Assembly (NCBI GenBank): GCA_043228905.1
Contig: JBHGNT010000010.1
Span: forward strand, 9,486,001-9,550,000
Length of the DNA stretch: 64,000 bases
Origin: Azolla caroliniana
Lineage: Eukaryota; Plantae; Polypodiophyta
Reading direction: 5' to 3'
In this document: piece by piece, positions 1 to 34,170 of the stretch
Layout of the letters: each line of letters opens with the position of its first letter
How positions within the stretch are numbered: the stretch's first letter is position 1
Translations under genes and position numbers: made by a program
Notes under the pieces: generated by a model
The model's database searches: none
Told to the model about the DNA's origin: nothing
What the model saw: the letters and a program-made list of their open reading frames with translations, nothing else

Positions 1-2053
1 GCTTGTTCCGGCTCCGATTTCGCTCGTTGGGGAAAGGAAGTCAGTGTTGCTTCCCGAGCTGGCAAGCTTCACAAATTTGTGCCTTTCGGCCACTAAATTT
101 GGGCAATCCGAACACTACCTGTTTCGATTGCAGATCTTGAAGCCGCTGGTGGTTGACGTGGCCTATCCACTTGTGCCACAAGTCGATGTCCGACTCGGAT
201 TTTTGTCCCTTCGCGAACATTGCAATGCCGCCGTCAGTGGAGTCGAGGATGAACATCCTCCCATCTCTGCGCCCTTGCGCAATCACACGGCCTTCTTCCT
301 CAATGAAGCACCCGAGGTGTGTAAACCGAACCTCCATCCCTTGGTCAACGATCTGTCCGACCGAGACCAAGTTTTTCGTGATTGTCGGAACGTGCAACAC
401 GTTCATGAGTTTCCCTTTCTGCCCGACATGGCTAAGGGGAACTTCTCCGACATTCGCGATCGGATGCGGAGTGTCGTCTCCAGTTGCGACTACTCCAGGT
501 TGTATCGGATTTTCAAGGTATGAGAACCACTCCTTATGGCTCGTCATGTGGTTTGACGCGTCGGAGTCTACGTACCACACCTCGTCCGATCTCGGGGTGG
601 TCTGTTTCATTGAGTTTGCTTCGTGTCTCGTCACAAAGGCAGTCCCTTCTCCGGCTCTCCCGGAGTCTTCGGCGTAGTGCGATCGCTGCCGATTTCCCTT
701 GTCGGTATGTCTGGAGCCGTTCCCGGAACCAGTTCTCTCCGAATCGGCGCGCTTCTTCCAGCACTCACTTTCCCTGTGGCCTTTCTTGCCACAGTACCAG
801 CACTCCGCGATGGACTTCCCTTGCCGGTTCTCATCGCTTCGGCTCCCCCTGTTTCCGAAGGGTTCGGAGTTGCTGTCGGCATCACTTCAGTGCCTTCTTC
901 CTTGATCTCGTCGGCCGCCTCCATTGCGCGCCGACTCGCCTCATCCTCCACGTCCACGAGGCCTATCTCCCTCCGTGTACAACATTCTGTTGTCGGTGTG
1001 CATGCTTGTAGACGCACTCGCGTGGTTCTCCTCTACCAGGAGCATCGACTGTAAGTCGAAAAAGGACGGCGTATTCTCCCGGGTACACACAGCCGTTCGG
1101 AACGCTCCGAACTTCGACGCCAAACCTCCGAGACAGATCTGGACCATCTCGCTCTCCTCGATGTTCACCTCTATGGAGGCGAGGGAGTTGCAGATATCCT
1201 TGATCTTCGAGGTATAGTCCGCCACCGACAAGTCGCGTTGTCGTAGGTTGCTCAACTCCTGTCGGAGCTGAAGCTTCCTGGTTGTGGTGCTCGTGGCGAA
1301 AATCTTCTTCAGATTTTCCCACGCACCCTTCGGCGTCTTTGCATCCCGAACATAGCTCAATAGCTGTTCGCCCACACACGACGCGAAGTAGTATAATACC
1401 CTGCTCGCCGATTGCTCCCACGACGGAAAGTCTCTGTGTGTCGATTCGGGTGCCGCGTCATTAGCTCCTTCGACATAACTCCAATAGTCGTGCCTGAGCA
1501 GGTACTGGTGCATCTTGTAGGACCAAGACACGTAGTTGGTTCTGTCGAGCTTCTCTGTTGGAAGCGAGCTCGCCATGCCTCTATCCATCGTTCTTCTTGT
1601 TCTTCTTCGTCAAGTTGTGTCGGCTGCAGAGAGGTTCTCAACCCTCGCGCTCTGATACCATGTAAAAAGTAGCATGCGGAAGCAAGTATAAAGACAGAAC
1701 AGAAGGGAGAACACTCAGGTTTAATGGAGAGCTTAAGCTTACACGGTATACGCGGGAGAGACAGAGAGAGTGAGAGAGAAGACTCAAAAACTATATTCAA
1801 TAATAATACTTAATCTGTACATAAGACGTGCTCAGTGAACACTTTTCTACAAGTCCTAGAAGGACTGACCGAAGTACTGACAGTACTTCAATGCTCATCA
1901 AGAGCTCCTACACTAACTCCCAAATATATTCCTCACGAAATATCTTTCCTAACGACCTCCGGTTTACGCACTCGACCTAACCGATCTGTCCCAACTGATC
2001 CGGTCCTCGGCTTCTTCAGCCGATCCGGCCGATGTTGAGCTTGTCTCTCAACA
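1..2053 (-). mobile_element. Ty1/copia LTR retrotransposon, 5' part (continues past the left edge); frameshifted gag-protease-GAG_pre-integrase
   Basis: 5' LTR 1661-2053 (minus strand TGTTGAG...TACA). PBS TGGTATCAGAGC (tRNA-iMet) at 1649-1660. Gag ORF 941-1588 (EKLDRTNYVSWSYKM...). Protease WYVDSDASNHM and pre-integrase LWHKWIGH...CEAC in ORF 41-634. Same family as 41288-47192. Confidence 0.93.
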
Positions 2054-4525
2054 ATAGCTTTTTACCCTCTCATTTGGTGTCATTTCCTATTTGTCTTTCT
2101 CTCTTGCTCTCTCTCTAACGTAACCCCCTTGGGAGGGGAGGTGAAGCCATTCTAGGCTTCACCCCCCACCCCAACAACACTTTTGGCACGACCGACAGGA
2201 TGACCCTCCATTGGAGAAGAAGTCACGTTTCCCTCCCTTGCTCTCCCTCTCCAACTAAAGTTTCTCTCTCCCTCTTTGCATCTCTATGTGTGTGTGTGTG
2301 TGTGTGTTAAAAAACATACAACTCAAGTTTGGGTGCCATTGATTTCAAGCAAGTAAGGAAGTGTATGCAGCTAAAGAAAGCTAAACAGATCGAGGAAGCT
2401 GAGAGAAAGCATGTTTAGGAAGCAAGAAGAAGAGCTGAACTCCATGGCGGTTCCCTATTCTAGAGATGCCATGGCAAAATATGTCCACAGTTAGGCCTCC
2501 CAACTGTGTCTCTACAAGTTGCTGCAAGGTCCCAAAAAGAAGGTGCTTTAGACCTTTGGTCTGACAAAGATGGACCTGAACATTTTTGAATCTCAAGCTC
2601 TTCACAACTATGGCCTCTACCATCACACCCCACTCAATCGCTTTCTTCCCAACTCTTTGCCCCACCTCTTTCTTCCCAACTCTTTCTTCCCAACTATGGC
2701 CTCTACCATCCTAACTCTGAAGAATGAGGAACTTCTTCAGAGACTATCCGACATCCCTTGACATGCGGTTAGACGATCGAACGGACGAAGATAGTCAGCA
2801 GACGGCGACGGACAGACAAATGACCGATAGCCAGCGGACGGACAACCGCAAACACAGCCACGGAGACGGACCGGTAGTCGGCCAACGACCGCGGAGACAA
2901 CCGAAGGACAACCGACCCCGAAGGGCAGCCGAAAGACTGAGACACAAACCTGGACAGAGGTTCGACGACCGGCGAACGGTGAACAGCCAACAGATGGCAA
3001 CGGTCGAGAATGACCATGGCCGAGAGGACATCTGAGATGCGGCCGAGAGTACTGCCAAGCGATGGCCCAAAAACGACAGCCGAGACACGCGGCGAAAAGC
3101 ATAGCAAAGACGCGAGGCCATATTCGGGACCCAGAATACGCCCGAGACACGTTGCCAAGATGCGCGGCCCAGAATACGGTTGAGGTGCGCGGCCGAGATG
3201 CGTTGTCGAGGTGTACGACCAAGAAATGGTCGAGAAACTGAGACGTTGTGGAGACACAGCTGAATGGTTGCCATCAGACAGCCACGACTGACGAACAAAG
3301 ACGGCCAGACGAATCGCCGGCCGGATAGATGGCCACGAACAGAGCTGGCCAGCCGGTTGGACAACGGACAACAGGGCAATAGAGGCGACGCATAGGTAGA
3401 TGGAGAAGGGCCAGAGACGGCCAATGGAAGAAGAAGAACTCAAGAAGAGGAAAGGAAGAAATGAGAAGATACGTGGAAGACATAAGGATGCACAGAAAAC
3501 AGAAGAAGAAAAAGGAAAAGAGGTGAACAAGATCGAAACAAGGGAGCAGGGGAAAGGAAGGGGAATAGAAGACAGAGAGAAGAAGAACGCTGAAAAAGAC
3601 AAAGAAGAAACAAAAATAGACACAACGAATTCGACTACAGAAGAGGAATAAGAAAGAATAGAGAGAAAAAGAAAATAGAAGAAAAAGAAAGAACACACAA
3701 AGAGAAGGAAAACAGGAAGAAATGAAGAGCACTAAGAAGAAGCAGAAGAAGAGAAGAACGCACAAGAAGAAAAAGAGGAGCTAGAAGGAAACGAAGAAAG
3801 AGATGAGGGGTATGAAGAGAAAATTTCATAAACATAAGGGCAGAGAAGATGAAATTTCGAAAACTCTAGGGCCGAAAATAAAATTTCAAAACATTTGAGG
3901 GTAAAAATTTTAGAGACCAAGGGTACAAAATCCAAAGCTCAATTCGCATGAAGAAACCGAAAAATACACATACATGTAACAGAATCATGAGGCCCATGCC
4001 GCAATGGAGGAGCCAATTGGTGTGTGATCCAATTGAGCGACATGCTGACCGAACGAGAAGGTTCGAGTCAAGCAATGGTCTGATCGAAGTTATCGATCGT
4101 AGAGCTATGATCCGGTTGATGGATTTCCTACCGTTGAGATGACCGATGGAGTTCTGGTCGTTAATAGTTGCCATGGTGAGTGGGTTCACCGTGTGATGCA
4201 TTGTCCCACAGGCGTGCCATGTGTTACCCGTAGGAGTTGTACGGGGCGGTATAAGGGTAAAACATGTTAAAGGGGTTGTTCGGTATGTGTAATGTATATG
4301 AGTGTGAGGATGAGTATGTGTAAGCACATGCATGTAACGGTCTCTTTTTGTAACGGACATATTATTTATCGTTACATTATGTACTTAGTCTATTAAAACC
4401 CCTTATGGGGGCACATAAGGAATATAGCTTTTTCCCCTCTCATTTGGTGTCATTTCCTATTTGTCTTTCTCTCTTTCTCTCTCTCTAACATAACCCCCTT
4501 GAAGGCTTCACCCCCCACCCCAACA
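2054..4525 (+). mobile_element. Non-autonomous LTR element, family A copy 1 (5' LTR cut by the copia at 1-2053)
   Basis: LTR remnant 2054-2176 matches the end of the LTR at 4222-4525 (TGTTACCCG...CCCCAACA). PBS-like TGGCACGACCGACAGGA at 2184. No gag/pol motifs. Internal GC-rich, purine-rich and 3' regions are homologous to 8800-10155. Confidence 0.88.
2341..2580 (+). pseudogene. Captured fragment resembling the N-terminus of plant DEAD-box RNA helicase RH33/RH48
   Basis: One frame from 2341 reads KQVRKCMQLKKAKQIEEAERKHV*EARRRAEL...VAARSQKEGALDLWSDKDGP, with two stops. This resembles the RH33/RH48 N-terminal motifs as I recall them (KRMHEKKAR, LYEARIRTEI, ADRFMKAGAEDFWNENDGP). Confidence 0.65.
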
Positions 4526-6223
4526 AAACACACTTGGATATATTTGATCGAGAAGTCTTATTCCGTTTTCGGGACCTAAAGAATCATGTTGAACGAGAAA
4601 CCGGACGCAAGATCAAGTGTCTGAGATCGGATGGCGGAAAAGATTACATTTTCGGTCAGTTCACGAGTTATCTATAGACGAAGGGAATCCGACGAAAGTT
4701 CTCCTGTAGATACATGCCAAAGTAGAACGGTGTGGCCGAGCGTCGGAATCAGACATTGGTAGAAGCGGCAAGGATGATGCTAGAATAGAAATGCATGCCC
4801 CGGATTTATTGGGCCGAAGCAATTCAGATTGCTATCTACATACAAAATCGGACATCTGTCTTAGGGACAAAGGTGTCACTACACGAGCTGTATTTCGAGC
4901 GAAAGCCGAATTTAGCGCACCTTCGGGTATTCGGCAACATTGCCTATGTGCATGTGCCAGATGAGAAGAAGAAGAAACTGGATGCAAAATCCGAGAAGTG
5001 CATCCTGGTTGACTACTCCGACGAACATAAGGTGTACAAGTGTTACAACCCCCGTTCAAAGCAAGTCCATGTTAGCCATGATGTCATCTTCGACAAATCA
5101 ACATCTTGGTACTTCTCATCACCCGAACCCAAACCGATTGTTGTGGATGATGCAATTGATTCCAGAATAGAAGGAAGCATAACGGAATCTGAACCAGATA
5201 GTCCGACTTCCCTCCAAATCAGTGGATTGAATCCAGACTGGTTGAGCTGAAACGGTCAACCCGATGACGAGCCGACGAGTAGTGAAGACTCGGTCGTGCT
5301 CTCCCCGCACCAGGAACCGAGGAGACGGATCACGCGTAAAGAAAAAGGGAAGAAGAAGCTGCCGGAGTATGACAGATAGGGAAGAGTCGGATCGGAGCGA
5401 GTCCGATTCCGGAAAGAACAAAGTCGGATCTTTGAAAGAGAAGTCTGAGTTGACCAAGAGGTCCACGAAATCGAAGAACCAGAAGTTGCGCAGTTCCACT
5501 CGCCAAAAGCACCATGTAGTTCGGTACAGATATAAGGAGTATATGGCGCTCATTATGAGTACATGGTGAAGGTGGCAACCATGCGTGAACCGGAGAGCTA
5601 CGCTAAAGCGCCTAAGGATCCGGATTGACGGAAGAGATGCACGCACTCATTGAAAATGAGACATGGAACTTGGTGGATGTATTGAAAGGAGTGAAGCTAA
5701 TCGGTTGCCGGTGGGTATACAATGTCAAATACAACATTGATGGCTCCGTTAACCGGTACAAGGTCCGATTAGTGGCAAAGGGCTATGCACAACAACACGA
5801 CATTAACTATGATGAGACGTTCACGTTGGTCGCAAAGATGACGATCGTCTATGTCTTGCTTGTGGTTGCAGCAACAAAGGGGTGTCATCTACATCAAATG
5901 GATATGAAAAATGTGTTCCTGCAAGGTGATCTTGAGGAACAAGTATACATGGTTCAGCTCCTCGGATTTCAATCCAGAATGAACACGTTGGCCATTTACG
6001 GACTGAAGAAGTTCCTTTACGGAGTAAAGCAAGCCCCGCGTGCTTGGAATGCAAAAATCACGCAACATTTGAATCATATGAGGTTTGTCGCGTCGAGTTC
6101 ATACTCTTCCCTGTTCATCCAGCGGGGACGGAAAGGACCGATAAGCATTTTGCTTTATGTTGATGATTTAGTCATCGCCGGCGCCAACCTGGACGAAATT
6201 GACCGCGTCAAGTCCGAACTCGC
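4526..6223 (+). mobile_element. Degenerate Ty1/copia integrase-RT fragment (host of family A copy 1)
   Basis: Integrase motifs HTWIYL, LRSDGG, YWAEA and HLRVFG (ORF 4795-5250). RT motifs IGCRWVY, LHQMD and LLYVDD (ORF 5625-6248). Stops and frameshifts present. Confidence 0.9.
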
Positions 6224-6493
6224 TGTCAGGAACTACGTGCTCCGATGAACAACGCTCAGACACAACCAAGCTTAGAATCAAACACAGAAAACGGGTGATG
6301 AACGCACGACACAGTGAAGAGAAGAGTACACAGGATGTTAATGTGGAAAACCCAAACTAGGGAAAAACCACGGCAGCCCACAGACTGCAAACTATCACTA
6401 TATCAGAATGTACAATAGTAGAGCACCGAGGCAACGACCTCGAGCTTGCTATCTTCGCCACAGGCGGCGGTTACAACATAGGCAACGACCTCT

Positions 6494-6528
<35 letters not shown>

Positions 6529-6991
6529 TACACTATTGCGCGCTCTAATCTTGCACCAACAAGAATGACAACAGACAACACTCTAAGTTTGCCCTAAGTC
6601 ATATTTATACTAATATGACTTTTCGGCTATTTACAAATATAGCCCCGATGGACTCTCAAAAACATATTTCCGAATATGTCCCTTCATCCAGTTAGCACTC
6701 CTCACCGGGCTTGCATCATCCGGCGCTTGCCGGGCACACATCATCTGGTTCTCACCGGGTCTTCTGTAGCCGGGTACTCCACATCCGGATTCGGTCTCGG
6801 CCTATCGGCCTCGATCGAGTTTGCTCATCAGTACTGTTCTTCTCACTTCCCATTCGGAGGGACCTGTTTCCTAACAAACTCCCCCTTCACTCCGGCATGG
6901 GATATCTTACTAGTCCGATCCGCTTCCGGCATGCATCCAGCTTGTCGGGTATCAATACTTTGGTTAGCATATCTAACCCGTTCTCGACCGT

Positions 6992-9900
6992 TGTTACCCG
7001 TAAGAATATACGGGGAGGCATAAGGGTATGTGTAATGATGTGGTTGATGTGTATGTGTAAAGTAAATGAGTATGTGTGAGCACATGCACAATTATGTGCA
7101 TGTGACAAGAGTGTAACAGTCGTCTCTTTTGTAACGGTCACTATTTACCGTTACATTATGTATTATATAAACCCCTTATGGGGCAAGTAATGGATATACA
7201 TTTTTCACCTCTCATTTTGTGTCATTTCCTAGTTGTCTTCCTCTCTTGCTCTCTCTCTCTAACGTAACCCCCTTGGGAGGGGGGTGAAGCCATTCTAGGC
7301 TTTACCCCCCCCCACCCCAACAACACTTTTGGCACGCCCGAACGGCCGACCTCCCTTGAGAAGAGGTCACTCTCTCCCTCCCTCCCTCTCTCGCTCCATC
7401 ACTAATCCCTAACTAATCCGTCGTTCTCTCCCTCTGTGTGTGTCTATTTGCTCATTGTGAGAGAGTGATGCAAAGCATAGCTATGACACGATGGACCAGC
7501 AAGGTAAGAGATCCATAGCGTCAGAAAGAGGAAGATCTCGAGATCAAGTGAGTGTAAGAAAGAGGAAGATCTCCACATCAAATGAGTGTTGGTGCCTCTG
7601 AAAAATCTGATGAGGTAGTTCAAGGTTCAAAATAAGAAGAAGATAAGATGCTCCATAAGCATGCAGCAGAGGTCCAGTCAGCCATGTCTACCGTCCTTTT
7701 CTGCCATGATGGGTCATCCCATCACGAAGTTGTCCGCTCAGCACATGGCTTCTTACTCTCTGTGCGATGACGATCACCTCCTCACATCTTGCTCCTTGCC
7801 TGCTACTGTTCTTCATCACGCATCGTACTCGATTCTCTGCTACATAGGGTTTAGAACTTCTGTTGGTGCCCTCCCTCAAAGAGGACAAGTAGTGACAGCC
7901 AGGGTAGCTTCTGGCTGTAGAAGAAACTCTAATGCTATTTTCTTGAGGAAAGTATAGAGGAAGTATAATTTCCAAGCCTCGCGAAACTTTTTCTAGACCT
8001 TGGCAGAATCAGGTACAGGGTTGGAGCGCACCACAATGGAAGATATGGATATTACAGTCCGCACTCATCTAAAGGGTGGAAGTTCATTCTTCCCAAGTAT
8101 GTGAAGTGTCTGTGAATTGCTGGAATGCTATGAGGCATACTCGAAGCAACAACACCACTGGCATTCAGGACCGATGCAGTAGAAGGAAAGGGAACTCTTT
8201 CTATTTCGTCTTTGTCTTCCAAATATCATTCATCCAAGATCTTGATTTGGAAGAAAGGGAACTTGATATTCGTTTTCTCTTTTTCTTGCTTGGGAAGCTC
8301 ATACTTCCATTCTACTCATTCAATCTGTTCTGCATAATTCTTCCCATGACCATGTTTATTTCCTGAGGCCCAGTTGCCTGGATGGGTTGTGTACTATGTA
8401 CTAGCACTGATGTTGGCTTTTGAATGTTTTACCCGCTCCAAAATCATTCCCTAAATTGTTCCTTACCTTCTCTTCGAAAACACTATGTCAGTAACCATAT
8501 TCAATCCTATGGTTTCAGGTTTAATTCAGCTTGGAAGTGCCTATGAGTGGGTTGTGACCAAGATTGTTGGTAGAGCTTCGGAGACAGATTTAATGGGCAT
8601 TGCTGAAGAGGGAGAGCATCATCAATGCGTCTGTTGCAGACATAGATGCTAAAAAGAGTGAACAAAACAATGGGAGTGTTCATGCTAGGAAGAGAAAGAT
8701 GAATCGTATCTATAGCAAGCAACTTGTGATCGCATATGTTCTACTCATTACGCTCAGACAAGAACTTCTTGTTGCACAACAATGATTAGAGAGATTTCAC
8801 CAAGGTATATGTGGTCCGCCGGACAGAGGTCCAACAGTCGGTGCCAGCAACCGCCGAACAAAGACATAGGGTGGCTGAGTGTAAGACCGAGACACGTGGC
8901 CTAGAGCACTGCCGAGACGTGAGAATATGGCCGAGATGCACGGTCGAGAGTATAGCCGAGATGCGTGGTTGAGTGTACGGCCGAGACGCGTGACCGAGTG
9001 TACGGCCAAGTGATGGCCGAGAGAAGGTTGGGCCTCAAATCGGCTGAGAGATCAGCGTCAGCCAAGAGCCTACCGTGATACAGCGACAACCGACGGCGGC
9101 GGACAGACAGAGAGCCGGCCGAAGGAGAGAAAGAGACAGCCAAGCCACAGACATTCGGAGGATAGCGGACGAACAGTGACGACCGGACAGACGGTCCGGC
9201 AGTCGGCTAGCCAAACGGTCGAGAAATTGAGGCCGAAAGACGGCCCCAAATAGAGCCTACCCGTGCATAGGCGCGGGTGGGCAGCCGAACCGGCTGAGAG
9301 ATGACCGACGTCTGACAGAGGGCCGGAAAGACACGGCCAACGGGCAGGCCGAACAGAGACATCCGTGGATAGCGGATGGAGCCAACCGGCCAATGGAGAC
9401 GGTTATGGACAAAGCCGGTCACAGGACAGGGCGGCCGACGGACAGCTAGCTAGACCGCCGACAGACGGCTAGACGGTGGCCGGATGGCGAGTGGAAATGA
9501 CGGCCGGACAGAATGACAGATGCAAAGAAGGTCGCCAGGAGAAGACCGACGCAGAGAAGAAAGAGAAGACATACGCAAGAAAAGAAAAAGAAGAAAGGAG
9601 GGAGACGAGAAAAACAGACGAAGAAGAAATTAGAAGAAAGAAGAAGATACAGATAGAGAGAGAAAAAGACAAAAAGAAGAAGAAGAGGGGCCCAAAAGAA
9701 AATTTGAAAAATAGAAGGGCATTTCATAAAATTTCAATAATTCGAGGGCATAGCATCGAATTTCAGAAGCTTGGGTGCAGAAAGAAAATTTCGAAAACAC
9801 AAGTGCCAAAAATAAAATTTCAAAAAATTTTGAGGGTAAAAATTTTAGAGACCAAGGGTACAAAATATAAAACTCACTTCACATGATGAAAGAAAGAATA

Positions 9901-10444
9901 CACAAATGCACAACACGATTTCACGACCCATGCCACATTGAACTAGTCGATTGGTGTATGATCCAATCGCGACTTGTGCTGACCGAACGAGAAGGTTCGA
10001 GTCAAGCAAAGCTCCGATCAAAGTTATCGATCGTAGAGCAGTGGTTCGGTTGAGGGATTTCCAACTATTGAGACGATCAATGGAGTTCCGATCGAGAAGA
10101 GTTGCCATGGCGAGTGGGTTCACCGTGCAATGCACTGTCCCACAGGTGTGCCATGTGTCATAAGGGTATGTGTAATGATGTGGTTGATGTGTATGTGTAA
10201 AGTAAATGAGTATGTGTGAGCACATGCACAATTATGTGCATGTGACAAGAGTGTAACGGTCACTATTTACCGTTACATTATGTATTATATAAACCCCTTA
10301 TGGGGCAAGTAATGGATATACATTTTTCCCCTCTCATTTTGTGTCATTTCCTAATTGTCTTTCTCTCTTGCTCTCTCTCTAACGTAACCCCCTTGGGGGG
10401 GTGGGGGTGAAGCCATTCTAGGCTTTACCCCCCCCACCCCAACA
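6992..10444 (+). mobile_element. Non-autonomous LTR element, family A copy 2
   Basis: 5' LTR 6992-7322. 3' LTR 10156-10444 is near-identical but has two short deletions. PBS TGGCACGCCCG at 7330. Imperfect TSD ACCGT/ACCGC. Interrupts a copia RNase H whose sequence resumes at ~10445. No retroelement ORFs. Confidence 0.92.
7995..8785 (+). pseudogene. CSLC: Captured cellulose synthase-like C (xyloglucan glucan synthase, GT2) fragment, degenerate
   Basis: Collinear CSLC motifs across frameshifts: LAESG..LERTTMEDMDITVR (8000-8062); [23 protein letters not shown] (QxxRW motif region, 8111-8179); [16 protein letters not shown]; [21 protein letters not shown]; PAPKSF; [34 protein letters not shown] (from 8461); RKRKMNRIYSK. 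Confidence 0.9.
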
Positions 10445-10935
10445 ACCGCTGTGTGGATCTTCGTCAGCGCGAACTCCTGGTCATCTACTCTTTCCCAGAT
10501 ATCGTGATACTTTCGCTGGATATGCTTCGTCCGGGAATGCTAGGCCGCATTCTTAGCAAGGTGGATGGCACTTTGACTATCGCAATAGAGCTAGTATTCA
10601 TCTTGCTAGATACCGAGCTCTCCGATGAAATCCTTCATCCATAATATTTCCTTGCCGGCTTCCACAACCGCCATGTACTCCACCTCCGTGGTTGACAACA
10701 CAACCGTCTTCTGCAGCCTTGACTGCCATGAAACAGCTCCCCCTTCATATGTCATTACATACCCGGATGTAGACCGGCTGGTATCCACATCAGCCGACAT
10801 GTCTGAATCGGTAAAACCGTCAAATTGAGGTTTACCGGAGCCGAATCGGAGACACATATTTGAAGTGCCCTTCAATTACCGAAGTATCCATTTGACCGCA
10901 TTCCAGTGCTCCTTGCGGGGATTGCTCATAAACCG

Positions 10936-13704: not shown

Positions 13705-16206
13705 TTGCCCATTCTGTTTTGTTGATGATCTTTAGTTAATTAATATAGCACTCTTCAGTGCATAAGCTGTCATCCCCCTACTGTGTATTTTCTTATTATT
13801 ACTTGGTTATTCTCTCTGATTTCTTCTCTTGCTTATTCACCCACTCTCACACAAACACCCTATGCTTCTAAATACTCAACTCTACGATTCTTTACATGGT
13901 ATCGGAGCGTGAGGGTTAGAGACCCTTCACTGAGCTCTACCATTGAAACTGTGTGAGCAGCTAGAGACATTGTTTCAAACCAGCTATCATCGGTGTAGTG
14001 TTGCATGGCAAGAGGCTCACGTTAAAAGGAGCATATGAATCAAGCAAAATCAGAGAGATGAATGCACAAATGGGTGTGCACTTCCAACAGAGAAGTTGGA
14101 CAGGCACAACTACGCATCTTGGGAATATAAGATGCAACAATACTTAGTTGGGCAAGGGTATTGGAGTTATATCGAGGGAGCTTAGGAAACAACCCCCGAT
14201 ATTACAAGTCCCAACTACCCCACATGGCAGCAATGGGCTAGTAGGGTAATGTATTGTTTGGCAACATGTGTGCGAGATCACATGTTAAGCTATATTCGAG
14301 ATGTGAAAGCCCCAACAGAAGCGTGGAAAAACTTGAAGAAGATTTTCACGGCTTCAACTATAGCGGGAGAACTTCAACTCCGGCAGGAATTGAACAATAT
14401 TCGGTAGGGGGATATGTTTGTGACGGACTATACCCTCTGGATCAAAGACTTATGCGATTCACTTGGCTCCATCAATGTCACAGTTGATGATGACGAGATG
14501 GTGCATATCTGTCTTGGCGGCCTTGCACAAAAATATGGCTCATTTCAAACTGCCATAACAAGGGAGAACCCCCTAAGCTTTTTCGACTTGCAATCCATGT
14601 TAATGGTTGAGGAGAACCATACATGGTCGAAAAGCATAACATCTAATGGGCAGATGCTATATACACATGATGATCTCAGTCGAGGTCACGGTCGTGGTCA
14701 TGGAAATCGGGGGAGGAATGGCCGAGGAAGAGGTGGACGACGTCCACAACAGTTTAATTCCAAGCAGCAAGAAGGTCGAAACAGCCGAGGGAATTCCGGC
14801 AAAAAGGGGAGCTTCCACCAACCTGCATCAACCAGGCAGAACCAACAATTTGAGTGTTGGTATTGTGGAAAGTTTGGCCACTTTGAAGCCGAGTGTCGGA
14901 AGAAGAAGAATGACTCGGCTGCCTCACACCGGCAATAAACAAACTATGTTGTGATGGCTGACCTAGAAAACAAAGGGCCAATGTTTGTTATGTGACACCG
15001 AGCGAATAACATGATAACAAGTGTTTCCCAACTTGATGATGTCTGGTTCGTGGACTCAGGTGCCTCAAATCACATGACAAGTCATCAAGAATGGTTCATG
15101 AATTTGAGGGAACCCGAGAGACCCGGCCTGGTGGAGACCGGTGATGACTCCACACACATGATTGAGCACATCGGAAATGTGGCCCTTAACAATCACGACA
15201 ACAAGGGCTACATGAAGGATGTACTACATGTCTCGACAATCACAAAGAATTTGGTCTCGGTTGGCCAAATTGTCGAGCAAGGAATGCAAGTACGATTCAA
15301 CCAGGAAGGTTGCTTCATCGAGGATAAGGGCCAACTTATCGCTCATGCAAGAAGAGAAGGTTGCATGTTTATTCTTGATGTGACCGAGGTGAACACAACA
15401 ATGTATGCAAAGGGACTCAAGGTTGATTCTGATATTGAGTTGTGGCACAAAAGGGTTGGCCATGTAAACCTTGGTAAACTCCGATCAATGCAAACAAAAG
15501 GGGTTGTGCACGGATTGCCACAATTTACTTCGAAACATCCTGATAATGTATTTGAGGCGTGCCAACTAGGAAAGCAACATAGGCATCTGTGAAAGTGTTT
15601 TTAGAATCTAAGCCATTGAACATTAGGAGAATATAAAGTATAGATAATTCACCTTTTGAGGATAAGAACACGAACTAAGACCTTAGGGAAGAAGTCAAAA
15701 GTAAAAGTACGAGACCAAGAGAAAAGTAAAAAGAGAAAACGCAGACTATAAAAAACAGTAAAAATAGAATGGTCATAACTCCCTCGTTGTTTATCCAAAT
15801 ATCACGTTTAAATATGGATTAGAAAGCTTGTAAAAAGAGCTTTCTATAGCTTTTTAAATCGCTTAATTTGGATATCGGATGAGGGAGATATGACGATTAG
15901 AAGGTTGATGTGTCATAGCTAAAAATAGGGAGATAAAAAGCTTCCAAAAATAGCATGAACGTGGATAAGAAGAGGAAGGTTATAAAAGAAGAAGTAATAT
16001 TAGTGAGAAGGGGGAAGAGTGAAGGCCAAAGAGTGGATGAGGAGTGTTAGGAAGAAGTGTCTTTGTGGAAGAGGATGTGTCTTAGAAGAGGAAGGTCTTT
16101 GGTTTTAGTTCAATGTGGAGTTTGTCTCCTTTGTATTCTCTTGATGTTGGAATATCAGAACATTCTTATTTCTTGCTCGCTTTCTCTATCTTTTTTCTTA
16201 GTTTCT

Positions 16207-17962
16207 TGAGTTATATTCTCTAATCATAATTACCTAGAGCTATATAATATATTATGATTTTCAACTCCATCTAATCGGTTTGGTCAAGCCCTCATATAGT
16301 GTATAACTATCTATTATCTTATACATCCTATCATTTTGGCGCTCCAGGGAGGGCGGATCCTTTCCGTATAGGAGGGAGAAATTACCATTTAATTGTGTTA
16401 CTATATTACATTAACTTAGCTATGCAATTTGCATTTTCAGGTGAAAGAACACAAGATGCGGGTGCCTTTTTGGCATCTTTTGAGCATCATGCTGTCTCTA
16501 TTGGACGCATCACCGACAATGAGAAGTTACCTTTATTAGTAGCTACATTCTATGGTCGAGCTCGAGATTGGTATGACTCTCTTCCTCCAAACCAACAGGG
16601 AGCATATCAATTGTTGGTGCACCAGTTTCGTGCCAAATATATTCAACGACGAAGTGCAACCGAAGTAAGGGAAGAGCTATTTCGACTAAAGATGGAATCA
16701 CCAATTGGTTTCACTAAGTATGAAAGAAATTTCAAGGATTTGTGGACTACATGGATTCGTCTTCGTGGCGGCACTGAAGACGAGTGGTAATAGTGAGTTA
16801 TATTCTCTAATCATAATTACCTAGAGCTATATAATATATTATGATTTTCAACTCCATCTAATCGGTTTGGTCAAGCCCTCATATAGTGTATAACTATCTA
16901 TTATCTTATACATCCTATCATTTTGGCGCTCCAGGGAGGGCGGATCCTTTCCGTATAGGAGGGAGAAATTACCATTTAATTGTGTTACTATATTACATTA
17001 ACTTAGCTATGCAATTTGCATTTTCAGGTGAAAGAACACAAGATGCGGGTGCCTTTTTGGCATCTTTTGAGCATCATGCTGTCTCTATTGGACGCATCAC
17101 CGACAATGAGAAGTTACCTTTATTAGTAGCTACATTCTATGGTCGAGCTCGAGATTGGTATGACTCTCTTCCTCCAAACCAACAGGGAGCATATCAATTG
17201 TTGGTGCACCAGTTTCGTGCCAAATATATTCAACGACGAAGTGCAACCGAAGTAAGGGAAGAGCTATTTCGACTAAAGATGGAATCACCAATTGGTTTCA
17301 CTGAGTATGAAAGAAATTTCAAGGATTTGTGGACTACATGGATTCGTCTTCGTGGCGGCACTGAAGACGAGTGGTAATAGTGAGTTATATTCTCTAATCA
17401 TAATTACCTAGAGCTATATAATATATTATGATTTTCAACTCCATCTAATCGGTTTGGTCAAGCCCTCATATAGTGTATAACTATCTATTATCTTATACAT
17501 CCTATCATTTTGGCGCTCCAGGGAGGGCGGATCCTTTCCGTATAGGAGGGAGAAATTACCATTTAATTGTGTTACTATATTACATTAACTTAGCTATGCA
17601 ATTTGCATTTTCAGGTGAAAGAACACAAGATGCGGGTGCCTTTTTGGCATCTTTTGAGCATCATGCTGTCTCTATTGGACGCATCACCGACAATGAGAAG
17701 TTACCTTTATTAGTAGCTACATTCTATGGTCGAGCTCGAGATTGGTATGACTCTCTTCCTCCAAACCAACAGGGAGCATATCAATTGTTGGTGCACCAGT
17801 TTCGTGCCAAATATATTCAACAACGAAGTGCAACCGAAGTAAGGGAAGAGCTATTTCGACTAAAGATGGAATCACCAATTGGTTTCACTGAGTATGAAAG
17901 AAATTTCAAGGATTTGTGGACTACATGGATTCGTCTTCGTGGCGGCACTGAAGACGAGTGGT
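16207..17962 (+). repeat. Three tandem 587-bp units comprising LTR U5 end + PBS + gag 5' end
   Basis: Units start at 16207, 16794 and 17381. Both junctions read GAGTGGT-AATAG-TGAGTTA. Two distinguishing SNPs seen among the units. Confidence 0.96.
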
Positions 17963-20481
17963 TTAAAATGGAACGATTCAAGATGGGTCTTGATATGTAT
18001 TTCCGTTTGGAAGCAAACTTGAAGGATCCCACATCGTTTCAAGCTCTTATCCAAGTTTGTCAAGCTTATGATCGACAAGTGAAGATGATGAGCTCCTTGG
18101 GGGATCCCCAAATGACGGCTTTGGGTGCAAATTTGATGCCTCGTGCCAACTTTCAAGCCTCATCTTCAATTGTGCATGGGGGACAAGTGTTTCCAAATGT
18201 GTATACCACCACAACAATAAACCCAACAAGTATATCCCAAGAAGTTGAACAAGTGAGGAGTGAACAAGATACCATGGCATTGGTAAATCGGCGCTTTGAT
18301 GAAGTGATGACCCACTTGCGACAATCCCAAGCAATTCACAACACTATTCCCGATAGTGGTGGCTCTAGAGGGCATCACGGTGTAATTTGTTATTCTTGTC
18401 AAGAGGAGGGACACATCTCAACAAGATGTCCTCATCGACAACAAAGAGGCATGGGAAGAGGCATTTATCACGTGCAAAGGAATGGACAACGACCTAACAA
18501 CAATGAAGTCGAAGGAAACGTAACACTCCCTATGGCTCAGGTTCCTACAATTCCTCATAATGCGAATCTTCTTAATTTTATTGATGATAGTGATAATTCT
18601 TTTGAAGTAGCTCCTGTGAAAAGGACAAGGTCCTCGCAAAAGGAGAAAGAAGTTGAAGGAGAATCTAGTGCCTCAAGACAAAAGAAGAAGTCTAAGGAGA
18701 ATGAGAAAGAGGAAAAATTGAGAAGGAGACACTCTAGAAGAAAGATCAAGATGGAGGACATTCCTATGGGTGAAGGTGTAGAAGCTTTCAATTTGAAGCA
18801 TGAGTTGATTTCAAGTGGACCAAGGATAACATGGCCGCAACTTCTCCAATTATCTCCCACATTACGAAAGGAGTGGGGGCGACTTGCAAGTATTCGCCAA
18901 AGTCGGAAGACTGTGCATTATGTGGGAATCGTGCGAGTAGAAGATCGAAAGGACATACGACCCACCATCCCCGTCTCCATCAAAGGGTTTCACATCAAAG
19001 ATGCGTTGGTTGATAGTGGTGCTAGAGTAAGCTTGATTTCTGAATTTGTGGTAAACAAAGTGGGAATTCCTATAAGTAGGTCATCTTCGGCAAGAGTGGC
19101 TGTAGCCGATGGTGGAGTGGTCCATTGCATTGGCATAGTGGAGGATGTTGTCATCAAGTGTTTTGGGGTAAGCATTTCCATGGATTTTCATGTAATACCA
19201 CTAAAAGGACCGTCATATTCTTTGGTACTAGGACGACCATGGATGCAAGAACTCAATGTTGTCCAAGATTGGAGCAAAGGTTTGATGACCATAACGCCAT
19301 CAAAAGGAGTGAGCATACATTATGATATGCGGCAACAAAGACTTATTGAGAAAGAAGAAGATGGAATAACTGAATATGATAGTGGGTCCGCATATGAAAG
19401 TGATGAAAGTGAAGATTCCTCGTCAGAATGGGAAATGACCACATCATATGCCGTTTTGAAGGAAGAAGATGATGAAGGAGGTTTAATTACTATGGAGCAA
19501 AAAGAGAAGATGATTTCTAAAGATCTTAAAGGGCAAGAGAGGCAACAATTTATTAATTTGATTTCTGAATTTCCTAACCTTTTCATTAGTGATTATGCTC
19601 ATATTAGGGGTGTAGATGTCATCCAACATCACATAAATCTAAAGGAGGGTACAACTCCCGTTGCGCAAAAGTTGCGAAGGCTAGGTCACGTGCAAAAGGA
19701 GGCCTTATTAAAGGAAGTCAAAGCTTTGTTGCGTGCACAATTCATTTACCCAGTGGAAGATTCTGAATGGGTTTCGCCCATTGTGGTGGTACCTAAAAAG
19801 AATGGAAAATGGAGGGTTTGTGTTGATTACAAACCTCTAAATGCGGCTACCAAGAGGGATCACTTTCCTCTCCCTTTCCAAGATGAAATATTAGATGAAA
19901 TTGCGGGTCATGAAATGTACTCTGTTTGTGATGGCTATTCAGGTTATTTTCAAATTCGTATTGCGGAAGAGGATCAAAAGAAGACGACATTCATCACTCC
20001 ATGGGGATGCTTTGCATATCGATGCATGCCCTTTGGACTCACAAATGCTGTTTTTACATTTAATCGTCTTGCTATTCATGTATTCCAACCATTCTTTGGA
20101 AAGTTTGTTAGAGTCTTTATGGATGACTTTGCAATTTATAGTAGCAGGAAAGACCATTTGGAAAAGGTTCGCTTGGCATTCAAAAGATTGGAGGAATGCA
20201 AAATGCAACTCAACCCAGAGAAGTGTCACATAGGTGAAAAGGAGGTGGTGATGCTTGGTCATGTGGTGTCTCAAGAAGGAATCAAAGTGGATAGCTCAAA
20301 GATTGAAGCAATTCAAAAGATGACAACACCCACGAGTATCAAAGATTTGGAGCACGAATTGCTAAATGGGCTCTACTATTGGCGGAGTTTGATTTTGAAG
20401 TCAAATTGGAATCAACTATGCGTGCCGAATTGGCGGATCTTCTCACCTTTAGAGAAACCTTTCATGAAGAAGACTTGGTAA
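17596..20481 (+). CDS. Gypsy Gag-protease-RT polyprotein, truncated after the RT palm by a deletion/frameshift
   Basis: ATG at 17596 (MQFAFSG). Zinc knuckle CYSCQEEGHISTRC, protease LVDSGA, RT motifs SEWVSPIVVVPKK, DHFPLPF, MPFGL and FMDD. Homology ends at TPTSIKDL (~20349). Confidence 0.9.
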   Translation: MQFAFSGERTQDAGAFLASFEHHAVSIGRITDNEKLPLLVATFYGRARDWYDSLPPNQQGAYQLLVHQFRAKYIQQRSATEVREELFRLKMESPIGFTEYERNFKDLWTTWIRLRGGTEDEWFKMERFKMGLDMYFRLEANLKDPTSFQALIQVCQAYDRQVKMMSSLGDPQMTALGANLMPRANFQASSSIVHGGQVFPNVYTTTTINPTSISQEVEQVRSEQDTMALVNRRFDEVMTHLRQSQAIHNTIPDSGGSRGHHGVICYSCQEEGHISTRCPHRQQRGMGRGIYHVQRNGQRPNNNEVEGNVTLPMAQVPTIPHNANLLNFIDDSDNSFEVAPVKRTRSSQKEKEVEGESSASRQKKKSKENEKEEKLRRRHSRRKIKMEDIPMGEGVEAFNLKHELISSGPRITWPQLLQLSPTLRKEWGRLASIRQSRKTVHYVGIVRVEDRKDIRPTIPVSIKGFHIKDALVDSGARVSLISEFVVNKVGIPISRSSSARVAVADGGVVHCIGIVEDVVIKCFGVSISMDFHVIPLKGPSYSLVLGRPWMQELNVVQDWSKGLMTITPSKGVSIHYDMRQQRLIEKEEDGITEYDSGSAYESDESEDSSSEWEMTTSYAVLKEEDDEGGLITMEQKEKMISKDLKGQERQQFINLISEFPNLFISDYAHIRGVDVIQHHINLKEGTTPVAQKLRRLGHVQKEALLKEVKALLRAQFIYPVEDSEWVSPIVVVPKKNGKWRVCVDYKPLNAATKRDHFPLPFQDEILDEIAGHEMYSVCDGYSGYFQIRIAEEDQKKTTFITPWGCFAYRCMPFGLTNAVFTFNRLAIHVFQPFFGKFVRVFMDDFAIYSSRKDHLEKVRLAFKRLEECKMQLNPEKCHIGEKEVVMLGHVVSQEGIKVDSSKIEAIQKMTTPTSIKDLEHELLNGLYYWRSLILKSNWNQLCVPNWRIFSPLEKPFMKKTW

Positions 20482-22301
20482 AGCTACGAAAGGCACTTCC
20501 CGAGCCGGATATGGAGGATGCATTCACCTTATTCTTTGATGGGGCATTTCGCAAAGCCACAAACATAGCCGTGGGTGGGATTATTCTCAAGGATCCTCAA
20601 GGAGACAGAGTAAAAAGTGAAGGTATTACATTAAGTGGTGTGAATTCAAATAATGAAGCGGAGTATGCTACCTTGTGTTATGGTCTTCGTCTATGTAAAG
20701 CTATGAAGATAAAAAGATTAATTCTTAAGGGTGATTCCTTATTGGTAATTAAACAAATTCAAGGCAATTGGAAATGTCAAAGTGATGGGCTTAGAAATTT
20801 TTATAAAGAAGCAATGAGTCTACTAAGGTCTTTTGAAAAGATACAGGTTAAGCATGTGGGGAGATTATACAATAAAGAAGCGGATGCATTAGCTCAAGCC
20901 CAATTAGATAAGATCAAGGAAGGTTTCGTTGGTGTTTTGGAGACGTGCAAAGATGTAGACTCCCTAGAGGAAGTACATAATTTTCTTAATAAAGGAGAGT
21001 TTCCAAATAACCTCAATGCTTTGCAAAGAAAGCGTTTGGTGGCAAAGGCTTCACAATATCATTTGGTGGGTGAAGATTTGTACAACAAAGGGAAAGATGG
21101 AGTTTTACGAAGAGTTCCTAACAAAAGCGAGATTATAAAGATACTCTTTATGTTGCATGAAGAAGTTTGTGGTGGGCATTTAGCCCATGATATAATGATA
21201 AGAAAGATTTTACTAATTGGTTTTACATGGCCTACTATCCATAGGGATGTGCATGTTTGGTGTAGATCTTGTGATGCATGTCAAAAAGCGGGAATAAGAC
21301 ATCTACAAAGTGGACCTTTACAACCCATTGTGGTGTTTGCTCCATTCGAGAAATGGGGAATTGATGCAGTAGGACCTCTTCCGAAAACTCAACATGGTAA
21401 AGAGTTTATTTTGGTGGCCATTGACTACATGACAAAGTGGGTGGAAGCTATAGCAACTTCCTCGATTAAAGCCAAAGATGTAGCCCAATTTGTGTATAAG
21501 AATATTTGTACTAGATTTGGAGTTCCCATGGAGATTGTATCCGATCATGGACCCGGTTTTAGGAGTGAAATGTTAGCTTGTCTATTAAGCAAGTTGAAGA
21601 TTAAGCATCGATATTCAACGCCTTATTATCCTCAAGCAAATGGTGCAGTTGAGAAAGTGAATGGGCTTATAGTGAAGAATTTGACAAAGTTAGTGCAAGA
21701 CAAAGTAAGAACATGGGATAGGTATTTGGATGATACTCTTTGGGCTTATAGAGTTTCTTATAAATCCTCCACAGGTTTTACTCCTTTTTATTTGGTTTAT
21801 GGAAAAGAAGCGTTACTTCCGATCGAACTTGAGATCAAAAGTAATAGACTAATGGAGGCATCGCATCGCTCAAAAGGAAATGATGTGATGAGTCGTTTAG
21901 CGAGCAACCATCTACTACAATATTCAAGAGAAGAAGCTGTGGAGCATTACTTAAATCAAGCAATGAAGAGAAAGGAGGCATATGACAAAAAACACAAGGG
22001 CAACCACATTGAAGAAGGATCATTGGTTCTTAGGTATGATAATAGATATGATTATATTCAAGGACAAAAGCTTGATAATAAGTGGGAAGGACCCTTTGTG
22101 GTTCACAAAAAGTATGACAACGGAAGTTACCAATTGAAAGATGTGGATGGAGCACTTCATTCTTATCGAGTGAACGGATGGCGCCTTAAAAAGTATGTAA
22201 CTCGGGGACCTACTTATATTCCCCAAGTTACTAATGATATTGTTGATACGGATGGATGGGAGCAAGAAGTGGACTTGTTTCCCCATACATTATTTTCTTA
22301 A
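20350..22301 (+). CDS. Remainder of gypsy pol: RNase H C-terminal tail, archaeal-type RNase HI (aRH), integrase
   Basis: GARIAKWALLLAEFDF (native RNase H tail). aRH motifs FFDGA, NNEAEY, GDSLLVI and NKEADALA. Integrase HEEVCGGH...CDAC, WGIDAVGP, SDHG, PQANGAVE and WEGPF. No native start codon; out of frame with the upstream ORF. Confidence 0.9.
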
Positions 22302-24269
22302 TAGTCCATATTGTAGACCCATCTTTCTCTCTATTAACAAAAAGGAAGATGGTAATAGTGATTATCTTTTTTATTTGTAGAGAATGTGAGGTTTTTCCTA
22401 CCGATTAGCGGGGGTTTTACTCACATCTTTTTATTTTCTTTTTATTATATCTCTCTCATTGTCTATAGCCAAGAGATTGGCGAGAGAGCTTTTGTTTGTT
22501 AAGTACTGTCAATAAGTGCTTCGCCATAAATGGCTTAGCCTCTAACAAGGGGGAGGGCTAAATGTGAAAGTGTTTTTAGAATCTAAGCCATTGAACATTA
22601 GGAGAATATAAAGTATAGATAATTCACCTTTTGAGGATAAGAACACGAACTAAGACCTTAGGGAAGAAGTCAAAAGTAAAAGTACGAGACCAAGAGAAAA
22701 GTAAAAAGAGAAAACGCAGACTATAAAAAACAGTAAAAATAGAATGGTCATAACTCCCTCGTTGTTTATCCAAATATCACGTTTAAATATGGATTAGAAA
22801 GCTTGTAAAAAGAGCTTTCTATAGCTTTTTAAATCGCTTAATTTGGATATCGGATGAGGGAGATATGACGATTAGAAGGTTGATGTGTCATAGCTAAAAA
22901 TAGGGAGATAAAAAGCTTCCAAAAATAGCATGAACGTGGATAAGAAGAGGAAGGTTATAAAAGAAGAAGTAATATTAGTGAGAAGGGGGAAGAGTGAAGG
23001 CCAAAGAGTGGATGAGGAGTGTTAGGAAGAAGTGTCTTTGTGGAAGAGGATGTGTCTTAGAAGAGGAAGGTCTTTGGTTTTAGTTCAATGTGGAGTTTGT
23101 CTCCTTTGTATTCTCTTGATGTTGGAATATCAGAACATTCTTATTTCTTGCTCGCTTTCTCTATCTTTTTTCTTAGTTTCTTGAGTTATATTCTCTAATC
23201 ATAATTACCTAGAGCTATATAATATATTATGATTTTCAACTCCATCTAATCGGTTTGGTCAAGCCCTCATATAGTGTATAACTATCTATTATCTTATACA
23301 TCCTATCAGCATCCATTCCTAAGCGAAAGAAATGTGAGTAAAGGCTTGATGGACGTCATCCACTCAGATGTATGGGGCCCAGATCAAACAACGACAATCG
23401 GTGGGTGTAGGTACTTCGTTACCTTCATTGACGACTCTTCGCGGCATACCTGGATATGCCTGATGAAGTTGGAAATTGAGGTCTTCATCCACTTTCTCAA
23501 GTTAAAGAATCACGTGGAAAATGAGACGAATCGCAAGATTTGATGCTTACGGTCTGATGGTGGCCAAGAATACTTCTCAACCGAGTTCAAAGCGTTTCTA
23601 GAAGAGAAGGGGATTCGCCGGGAATTCTCTTGCCGGTACACACCACAACAAAACAGTGTTGCTGAGCGGAAGAATCACACAATTCTTGAGATGGCCTACA
23701 CCATGCTGCAGGAGAAGAACATGCCCAAGATCTATTGGGTAGAGGTAGCAGTTACAGTTGTGTATCTCATCAATAGGTGCACGACTAAGGGTGTCCATGG
23801 CATCACCCCTCACGAGAAGTATTTTGGGACAAAGCTAGACCTTTCGCACTTGAAGGTTTTTGGTAGCATTGCATTTGTGCATGTCCCCGATTAGAAGTGA
23901 AGAAAGCTTGACCCAAAATCAGAGAAGATGATCCTCGTCGGTTACTCGCTTGAGCAAAAGGTTTATAAGTGTTTTAACCCCATCACTTGACAGTCACAAA
24001 TAAGCCGAGATGTGGTATTTGATGAGGTGACATCATGGTATGGGCCAACATTAGTGACTCCCACTGTGCTCGAAACAAGCAGATCTAGAGCAGATTCTCA
24101 GAGTGAAGAAGAAGAAGAGATCCTAACGACCATTATGGGTGGAGAACCAACAGAGAGTTTTCCCACACTCCAACGGACTGGACCTAAGGTGTCATCCAAC
24201 AATCAGAGTCTTGCACAACATGAAGAAAACTCTGATGTGCTATCACCTTGGTGTTACACCCGTAGAATA

Positions 24270-26783: not shown

Positions 26784-27354
26784 AACTTCATACATTGAAT
26801 GTTTATATCATATACTCTTGTTCCTTGAATCATACTTTGTCTCAATCTTCTTTCTTGAATCATACATTGTCTCTATCTTTTATCTATGCTCGTCTCTCTC
26901 TCTCACACACACACTCACACACATTACTTGTAACTCTTCTTCTTACTATCCTTAACCATTCTATCATCACCATACAAGCCTTATTAAAAGTTAAGTTTCT
27001 TCAACTCCCCTTAACCTTAGTCCCCGCGACTTCGCCGCACGAACCACAACTACCCCGACAACGTGTCGTTCTTCTTCGGCACCGTAAACCACCGATTTGA
27101 ATACGGGGCACTCGACGGTTCGAGGATGCCCATCTCCACCTTCTGCTTCAGAAGCTCCATCAACTTCGGGATGTGAGCTCTCGGCACCAGAATCGGTTTG
27201 AGATTCCACAGTACATGCAGTACCGTGAAGATCACCATCGGTTCGACGATCGTCGGGTCCACGCACCCGATCTCCTCCGGCGAGAACGCGAAGGCTTTCC
27301 CATGCCTTCAGAGCATTCTCCGAAACCTGTCCTCCTTCGCCGGCAGTAGAAAGC

Positions 27355-32611: not shown

Positions 32612-33545
32612 AAAGCCACCCCCACCAACCTTGAGCTCCCGTAGCGTTATGTCGGTGAACTGGTGCCCTATGCCAGCCGGATTCCGTAAACTGGGGTCCG
32701 ACGTAACCCCTTTTATCCGCTCCTCATTGCCCTCCGGCAAGGGTGCCGCGACCGGCCTCACCTTTTGGTCCACAGTCTTGTACTTTGTATCCACGCGGGC
32801 CGTCCGATCCGACCCGATCTTTTCCCCGAAGTCCGCGATGACTTCGTACATTCCCATCGAACCTACCAGAACAGTCCGGTCTTCTCTAAGGTCTTCACCG
32901 ATCACCTTTTGCAACTCGCCCAAGGTGTCGTCAAAAGAGACCGCCTCCACGGCGCCGCTGATGTCTTCGTCGAGGAAGAGGACTCCGCATCCCCTGAGCT
33001 GCTCCTCCGCTCGCTTCCTTTCCCGGCAGTTGACGTCGGCCATAGTACAACCTTCGTTGTTGGAGAACCAAAATTTCCTACCTATGGTACATGTCTTCTT
33101 CCGTAGTGTACATTTGTGGGGTTTTTCCCGAGTGTCCGGACTATCGCGGCCCCACGCCTTGATAGCCCTCTTTAAAAATCCCCTCGAGTTTCGCCATCGA
33201 GGGCCTCGTGGTTACGCTCATGGTTTGGTCGCACCGTCAGGAACTAGACCGAGTGACGCCCGTCCTGGCTCTTGACTCTTGCATAGGCCGAACCGTTGTC
33301 TAGCACCTTGGTCTCCATCCGTGCCGCCGTGATGTACGGCTCTCCTAGTATAACCGAATGCGAGGATGTCTCCTGCATGAAGAAGTGTTGGTCGATCTCG
33401 ACATCGCCGATTTTCACCCGTACGTTTGGACAGGCTCCATGTAGTTCTTCCGTGGCACGCGTCGCTGCCCTTATTTTCCAGCCATGCTTGGTGTTGATCG
33501 GCCATTTACCCTTCTTGTAGAAATCCATGGACATCAGGTTGATTT

Positions 33546-34170
33546 TGTTGTAGGTTTTAGAGTTAGGGTTAGGGTTAAGGACGATGATAATCATGATAAA
33601 GATAGACATGGTGGTTATGATGATGATGGAGAGTATGGGATTGATGGCGAGAGAGATCATGTGCATTGAGAAGCATTGCGGGGTGGGGGGTGGTGCCTAG
33701 AATGGCTCCACCCCCCTCCCAAGGGGGTTCAACGTAAGGGGAGATAGAAGAGAGAGATGACAAGAGAGAGATTGAGAGAGAGAGAAATGTTCATTCATTT
33801 TTCATTCATTCCCCATAAGGGGTTAAATAGTACAAGAGGGGGTAGATACAAAGGGGTGTAAGCCCCCTAGAGCATTCATACTGGACACTCACTCACACCT
33901 CCTCGTATCCATCCACATGCACACACGTGTGCATGTGTTCACATATGTATCGACTCACAATTACATTTATGCCCCCTACACACACACAACAATCATCATG
34001 ATAACATTTGACCCTCGCTCATCACATTGACTCTCCGTACATCTCGTACGGGGTAACACAATATCGACTCACAATTACATTTATGCCCCCTACACACACA
34101 ACAATCATCATGATAACATTTGACCCTCGCTCATCACATTGACTCTCCGTACATCTCGTACGGGGTAACA
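33546..34170 (-). mobile_element. Solo LTR related to family A, with a tandem duplication of its 5' end
   Basis: TSD GATTT (33541-33545, 34171-34175). Minus strand starts TGTTACCCCGTA and ends CAACA. Shares AACCCCTTATGGGG and CCCCCTTGGGAGGGG...GCCATTCTAGGC with family A LTRs. ~110-bp duplication 33948-34058 / 34062-34170. Confidence 0.92.

Follow-up and report, generated by a model that had tools for sequence, protein, structure and literature searches.

How does an LTR retrotransposon start its plus strand when the polypurine tract (PPT) is missing and a copy of a tRNA end lies in its place? In retroviruses and LTR retrotransposons a tRNA primes the minus strand and a PPT primes the plus strand, and the sections of PMC5371799 consulted treat this as a general rule. 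The window, by which we mean the whole stretch of 64,000 nucleotides that was analysed, is a nest of plant LTR retrotransposons, and the question is raised by two related non-coding elements within it, at about 2054-4530 (copy 1) and 6992-10444 (copy 2). In our view, the two copies are best read as non-autonomous members of a Ty3/gypsy lineage in which a split tRNA-Arg site replaces the PPT and at which a second host tRNA-Arg likely primes the plus strand; we give this reading a probability of roughly 0.55. The parts of the two copies are as follows.

2054-2179, + strand: copy 1, 5' LTR of which only the 3' part is left, ending at 2176 or 2179; 96% to 4424-4501 by alignment
2184-2194, + strand: copy 1, sense PBS TGGCACGACCG, short and with one mismatch
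2195-4179, + strand: copy 1, internal region, non-autonomous
4180-4189, + strand: copy 1, tRNA T-arm box GTGGGTTCAC, tRNA positions 49-58
4190-4202, + strand: copy 1, spacer of 13 nt that separates tRNA positions 58 and 59; most copies have a small hairpin at this point, which is weakened in copy 1
4203-4219, + strand: copy 1, tRNA-Arg 3'-end copy, positions 59-76 minus one base; a PBS when read on the minus strand
4220-4221, + strand: copy 1, 2-nt spacer TG ahead of the 3' LTR
4222-4530, + strand: copy 1, 3' LTR, start TGTTACCC; end at 4525 or 4530
6992-7325, + strand: copy 2, 5' LTR; end at 7322 or 7325
7330-7340, + strand: copy 2, sense PBS TGGCACGCCCG
10114-10123, + strand: copy 2, T-arm box
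10124-10136, + strand: copy 2, hairpin spacer GTGC-AAT-GCAC
10137-10153, + strand: copy 2, tRNA-Arg 3'-end copy
10156-10444, + strand: copy 2, 3' LTR; a deletion lies close inside its 5' end

The LTRs are direct repeats with TG...CA ends, the exact 3' end being uncertain by 3-5 nt. Target-site duplications of Ty3/gypsy elements measure 4-6 bp. The flanks of copy 2, ACCGT and ACCGC, are a possible target-site duplication which is not clean when compared with empty sites; copy 1 is truncated. The internal region of copy 1 holds two long open frames without a Pfam match, and similarity to the lineage polyprotein or to the extra ORF described below was not found in it. ARAGORN found no tRNA gene in the window, nor in the 60 that were scanned of the 90 related loci introduced below, and an Rfam search of positions 1900-10600 returned four weak matches only (E 0.79-4.4).

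In both copies GTCCCACAGGYGTGCCA ends 2 nt ahead of the 3' LTR (4203-4219 and 10137-10153) and is followed by TG and then by the LTR start TGT (4222 and 10156). When up to three mismatches were allowed, this 17-mer matched the window twice, compared with a mean of 0.13 in shuffled sequences, 1 of 100 of which reached two. The initial annotation had placed the motif at this distance, had reported the sense PBS TGGCACG at 2184 and 7330 and had stated that no PPT adjoins either 3' LTR, and all three observations stand. In the 80 nt ahead of the 3' LTR the longest purine run is 4 nt in copy 1, and in copy 2 it is 8 nt but lies 54 nt away. Control elements in the same window have normal PPTs, namely AAGGGGGAGGG ahead of 22563 in an unrelated gypsy element bearing archaeal RNase H (aRH) and GAAGGGGG ahead of a copia LTR near 13100.

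The window has other residents as well. A gypsy element with a Tat-type archaeal RNase H and identical 746-bp LTRs spans 15588-23308; within 16207-17962 there are three tandem copies of a 587-bp unit comprising the end of the LTR, the PBS and the start of gag, which may be real or an assembly slip. A minus-strand copia element at 27355-32613 has an unbroken frame of 1374 codons and identical 574-bp LTRs, which indicates a very recent insertion. The end of the window (62900-64000) is a satellite array with an AGCTA-rich unit of roughly 20 bp.

The absence of a PPT could be spurious if the true LTR boundary lay further upstream, a case that the initial annotation had raised. Contigs of public DNA runs were aligned twice, with four runs each time (five runs in all, from organisms A-D). 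At 4222 the contigs break off into unrelated flanks in 4/4 runs (agreement 0.37-0.43), which fixes the LTR start there. At copy 2, 61, 51, 62 and 50 contigs in the four runs cross from the motif into the intact LTR start. Within 4150-4270 we observed no gaps or joints, and no alternative letter reached 8% at positions 4204-4221 in any of four runs; many flanking positions are likewise invariant at this threshold, so that the result speaks for retention within the family and not for special constraint. The comparison is less biased than one of loci chosen by the motif.

Since the motif pattern was derived from the two window copies, the real test is provided by loci from metagenomes. A search for the 17-mer with TGT after a gap of 1-7 bases found 107 loci, of which 17 were set aside by eye, together with two viral matches, as non-family (gap of 5-7 or bacterial-looking context). 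The 90 loci kept are plant LTR elements of several LTR families, with starts that include TGTTGGC, TGTTGTC, TGTTACC, TGTTATC and others. Although the pattern allowed gaps of 1-7, the gap to the LTR is 2 nt in 88 of the 90 and 3 nt in the other two; the motif thus keeps its distance in other copies and families, as the initial annotation had proposed to check, among loci which were chosen by the motif, so that motif-less relatives could not appear, and which may come from few or related host species, whose relatedness inflates conservation counts. In the 40 nt ahead of the LTR, 19 of which are fixed by the pattern, the longest purine run is 3-4 in 86 of 87 loci and 6 in one. The two motif matches in viral contigs are both unrelated to the family, and these contigs held no relative of the coding protein P0005.

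The links between the window family and the coding families are the shared site and locus L018, in which an LTR 82% like that of the window is followed by the 14-nt PBS type and leader found in L019 and L029, a join that could be an assembly product. The match of the PBS after the 5' LTR is 14 nt in the gag-bearing families, compared with about 10-11 nt in the window (in copy 1 with the mismatch), where the PBS lies 4 or 7 nt from the LTR end. We also note a minus-strand LTR at 33545-34170 of the window, about 73% to the family, in which the first 111 bp are duplicated; L029 contains a close copy that continues into the same sequence downstream, and in L082 this LTR type is also preceded by the motif. 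Locus L030 (1195-1883) is a fold-back in which two partial elements lie head to head, and the 17-mer of the inverted element has an A-to-G variant. In L004, L041, L050 and L100, a segment of about 150-165 bp of the conserved 3' internal region, directly ahead of the site, is duplicated in tandem.

The interpretation of the site depends on the polarity of the element. We first suspected an element running on the minus strand, for which the motif would be an ordinary PBS: it is the better tRNA match, a gap of 2 nt is typical of a PBS, an ATG follows the motif on the minus strand, and no other internal part is shared as widely as the 350 nt beside the motif (depth about 25,000-29,000, compared with 430 after the sense PBS; X1). 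This candidate was dropped when coding sequence was located in the relatives. Downstream of the LTR that follows the motif, L031 and L071 have the sense PBS TGGCACGCCTGGTG and then gag on the plus strand. The gag of L031 matches Pfam Retrotrans_gag with an E value of 5.5e-05, just under the curated cut-off, and the gag products of both loci match P0004 and P0005 at 34-45% with E values of 1e-30 or better. In L076 the RT-RNase H region is on the plus strand upstream of the motif, and an extra ORF lies on the plus strand upstream of it in 31 of 31 matching loci, ending just before the motif. In short-read assemblies a collapsed LTR may connect a 3' end with a 5' end, and LTR direction is kept in such joins. 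The open frame on the minus strand has no excess of third-position changes (11/7/12) and no Pfam match, and the other end of the element also lacks a PPT. The plus strand is therefore the sense strand, as the initial annotation had taken it to be. Its suggestion that the element may replicate from either strand is not supported by the one-way coding polarity, to which the sole exception is a fragment of the lineage integrase in L082, on the minus strand and inverted relative to the extra ORF and the motif (768-1598 as oriented); we read it as a rearrangement, and it has been counted both for a minus-strand element and against priming by a tRNA. Replication from the minus strand, or from either strand, is in our judgement very improbable. 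A practical consequence of the better tRNA match at the 3' end is that annotation tools relying on PBS and PPT for orientation can assign this lineage the wrong direction.

The site itself is larger than the 17 nt given in the initial annotation. It covers about 40 nt (4180-4219 in copy 1), and the 17-mer lacks one base of a tRNA end in register. Upstream of the 17-mer, and outside the search pattern, lies the box GTGGGTTCGA, followed by the 13-nt spacer. In bacterial tRNA-Arg(UCU) genes identified with ARAGORN (3/5 matches) the same box is joined directly to GTCCCAC, the seven-base acceptor strand, G and CCA, and from this order the site can be assigned as tRNA positions 49-58, spacer, and positions 59-76 less one base. 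The likeness to tRNA-Arg(UCU) that had been claimed for the motif is thus borne out against a bacterial proxy in place of the host's own tRNA, with one gap in the match. A tRNA-pattern search of the viral contigs gave three phage-type matches, one of them called tRNA-Glu, so similar tRNA ends occur outside Arg in prokaryotic sets.

At least 7 of the 10 bases of the T-arm box are present in 75 of the 82 loci with enough flank, compared with 9 of 2378 control windows and 0 of 19 non-family matches. The break in the layout falls at the tRNA 58/59 boundary, and position 58 is the most variable of the box (A 31, G 18, C 8 and T 7 in 64 rows, five of 69 with a poor box having been left out). tRNA position 58 carries the modification m1A58, and variability is expected of a base that faces it. 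A spacer stem of at least 4 bp occurs in 30 of 82 loci, compared with 16 of 574 controls. Three of the four hairpin pairs change on both sides (69 rows): one pair occurs as T-A, G-C and C-G, and the next as G-C and A-T. For the whole structure there are 40 such cells against a shuffled mean of 15.3, a count of sequences that corresponds to few independent events. In the largest family the register of the stem is shifted, and the helix is 74% paired. The sense PBS of the gag-bearing families has the same layout, consisting of the 14-nt match, a hairpin and CGAAC. Both site types cofold with the proxy bacterial tRNA tail as three-way junctions, and five inverted sites gave net energies of -20.6 to -32.8 kcal/mol with RNA parameters applied to the DNA strand.

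A site of this kind could also act through the RNA of the element itself. The tRNA-like stretch would survive RNase H, be cut at or near CCA and be extended in the manner of a non-purine PPT, with the reverse transcriptase recognizing a tRNA mimic. Position and 2-nt gap would be the same, and PPTs are described in excerpts of PMC3185511 as lacking a common consensus and as able to hold a pyrimidine, so that they need not be all purine. RNAalifold favours a competing six-pair hairpin inside the motif on the RNA strand, with changes of the G-U type only and no compensatory ones, and T immediately precedes the core in all 80 distinct rows. Against this, the site alone folds no better than shuffled sequences as RNA or DNA (z from -0.40 to +0.92 in 8/8 folds), the 5' strand of the acceptor is not conserved across families when compared by eye, and a self-primer would have no need of a T-arm box in a split arrangement resembling that of the sense PBS. 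The change G53A, found in 21 of 64 rows, breaks the intramolecular T-stem, which is lost in the largest family, but is tolerated as a wobble pair in a tRNA:DNA duplex. Box changes compatible with wobble pairing stand at 60 against 24; these transitions are dominated by about three family-fixed events, which makes them weak evidence. We regard self-priming as possible but clearly less probable than priming by a host tRNA.

A further suggestion of the initial annotation was that the two tRNA-like sites pair with each other and circularise the RNA. In a fuller form, pairing with the 5' PBS region would circularise the RNA or gate access of the tRNA and so aid strand transfer, and the plus strand would start from some other remnant at the boundary. 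The complementarity exists: in 4/4 elements 9-13 base pairs can form at the CCA end, with net energies of -11 to -17 kcal/mol, and Ty3 draws its RNA ends close to each other through a bipartite PBS, according to excerpts of PMC5371799. The conserved 17-mer and the T-arm box are left unexplained, since the window-type sense PBS diverges after 9-10 nt and neither of them follows it. The pairing is also weaker than that of the same inverted sites with the proxy tRNA tail, and it accounts neither for a plus-strand primer nor for the fixed 2-nt gap. We consider this role unlikely, while the possibility of the pairing itself stands.

It may be asked whether the site has any present role in priming. 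All of the plant loci may derive from one or a few related hosts, which would suit a relic of a tRNA fragment that an ancestor acquired on one occasion and that was kept by descent or for an unrelated role such as packaging or RNA 3' processing. The site has been kept while LTRs, upstream sequence and proteins diverged (the LTR starts differ, and the extra ORF is about 31-47% identical between families), changes in the hairpin are compensated, and no PPT is present to do the job. A mere relic therefore seems to us improbable, more so than pairing between the two sites.

Priming by a host tRNA-Arg is favoured by the position of the site, which is that of the plus-strand primer, by its tRNA docking layout and by its facing minus-strand DNA; among the three ideas of the initial annotation, a tRNA acting on minus-strand DNA is the best-fitting. 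The proposed route would be as follows. A first tRNA would prime the minus strand at the sense PBS, and RNase H would then clear the RNA and expose the minus-strand DNA. This DNA could pair with positions 76-59 of a second tRNA, with one tRNA base bulged, and with positions 58-49, the hairpin being looped out as a three-way junction. The reverse transcriptase would extend the CCA end of the tRNA over the 2-nt spacer into U3. Removal of the tRNA by RNase H would leave the usual two extra bases for integrase, which acts on such a two-base overhang. A tRNA:DNA hybrid is a substrate of RNase H, which counts against priming by a tRNA; more speculatively, the bulge, 11-12 nt from the 3' end, might help the primer to escape early RNase H cutting. 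Extended to the lineage, the proposal is that an entire Ty3/gypsy lineage of non-seed plants without a PPT would start both strands with host tRNA-Arg, each through a three-way junction, on RNA and on minus-strand DNA respectively; judged from sequence, we think this slightly better than an even bet.

The window copies are non-coding, and gene order is known from the relatives only. The RT-RH of L076 is 67-74% identical to seven proteins, including P0004 and P0005, which are full single-frame GAG-PROT-RT-RH-INT polyproteins with the Ty3/gypsy order and are linked to the site through L031, L071 and L076. The archaeal RNase H domain PF13456 is absent from P0001-P0009 and present in the unrelated window element at 20307. 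The precomputed Pfam domains of P0001-P0009 include no chromodomain, and in P0004 little sequence follows the integrase. A selected subset of RT domains, which included no named reference lineages, was placed in a tree with FastTree, where the L076-related proteins group in a single clade (support 1.0), with P0008 and P0009 next to it. The clade lies outside the angiosperm group and apart from the aRH-bearing RTs, near a fern protein (Adiantum) and two liverwort proteins (Riccia), with weak support for the deeper nodes. The host of the lineage is likely a non-seed plant. The extra ORF encodes up to about 870 amino acids (L019, 844-2541), with a long coiled-coil-like middle and an acidic proline-rich tail that ends in a conserved ILDI motif; it matches no Pfam family and has only 10 homologues (P0121-P0130), none of them named.

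The feature is real and lineage-wide, and full-text searches, with incomplete coverage and subscription journals mostly outside it, found no description of a tRNA site in place of a PPT. A high-copy lineage that integrates at a sharp LTR boundary without a PPT indicates that the tRNA/PPT rule can be broken, and it offers a natural system for studying how reverse transcriptase and RNase H choose, spare and remove a plus-strand primer. If the proposed route is correct, it would be a second way of plus-strand priming in LTR retroelements.

Comparison with known elements places the lineage close to the plant non-chromovirus Ty3/gypsy elements (Athila, Tat/Ogre/Retand, Phygy and Selgy, as described in parts of PMC6317226), with which it shares GAG-PROT-RT-RH-INT in the coding relatives, the lack of a chromodomain, a non-Met PBS and a 3' extra ORF; unlike them, it has no PPT. 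The missing chromodomain at the integrase end separates it from chromoviruses. Arg primers are given in the same excerpts for TatIII, Ogre and Retand, all of which have archaeal RNase H, and the lack of this domain here indicates that the lineage is not Tat (TatI-III, Ogre, Retand). Athila has listed primers of the Asp, Asn or Ala type, whereas the primer here is Arg-type and the RT falls outside the angiosperm clade, in a tree that held no named reference elements. Phygy and Selgy, compared by listed primer, differ as well, with Trp and Ala, respectively.

LARDs and TRIMs are types of non-autonomous LTR derivatives. The window copies resemble them in having LTRs and priming signals but no coding region, and differ in carrying an inverted tRNA site instead of a PPT.

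The closest parallels to the site itself are the bipartite PBSs of Ty1 and Ty3, which engage the T arm of the tRNA (PMC5371799, in part). As in those elements, the template pairs with the acceptor end and the T arm through two segments split by a loop. The Ty1 and Ty3 site lies on RNA and primes the minus strand, with the plus strand started from a PPT, whereas here a second such site is inverted and occupies the PPT position. Like a PPT, as characterized in passages of PMC3185511 and PMC5371799, it is a fixed signal that immediately precedes U3 and would define the left terminus of the linear DNA; unlike a PPT, it is a copy of a tRNA end with purine runs of 3-4 nt. The lineage is a variant of the Ty3/gypsy elements, and its probable route of plus-strand priming would be new.
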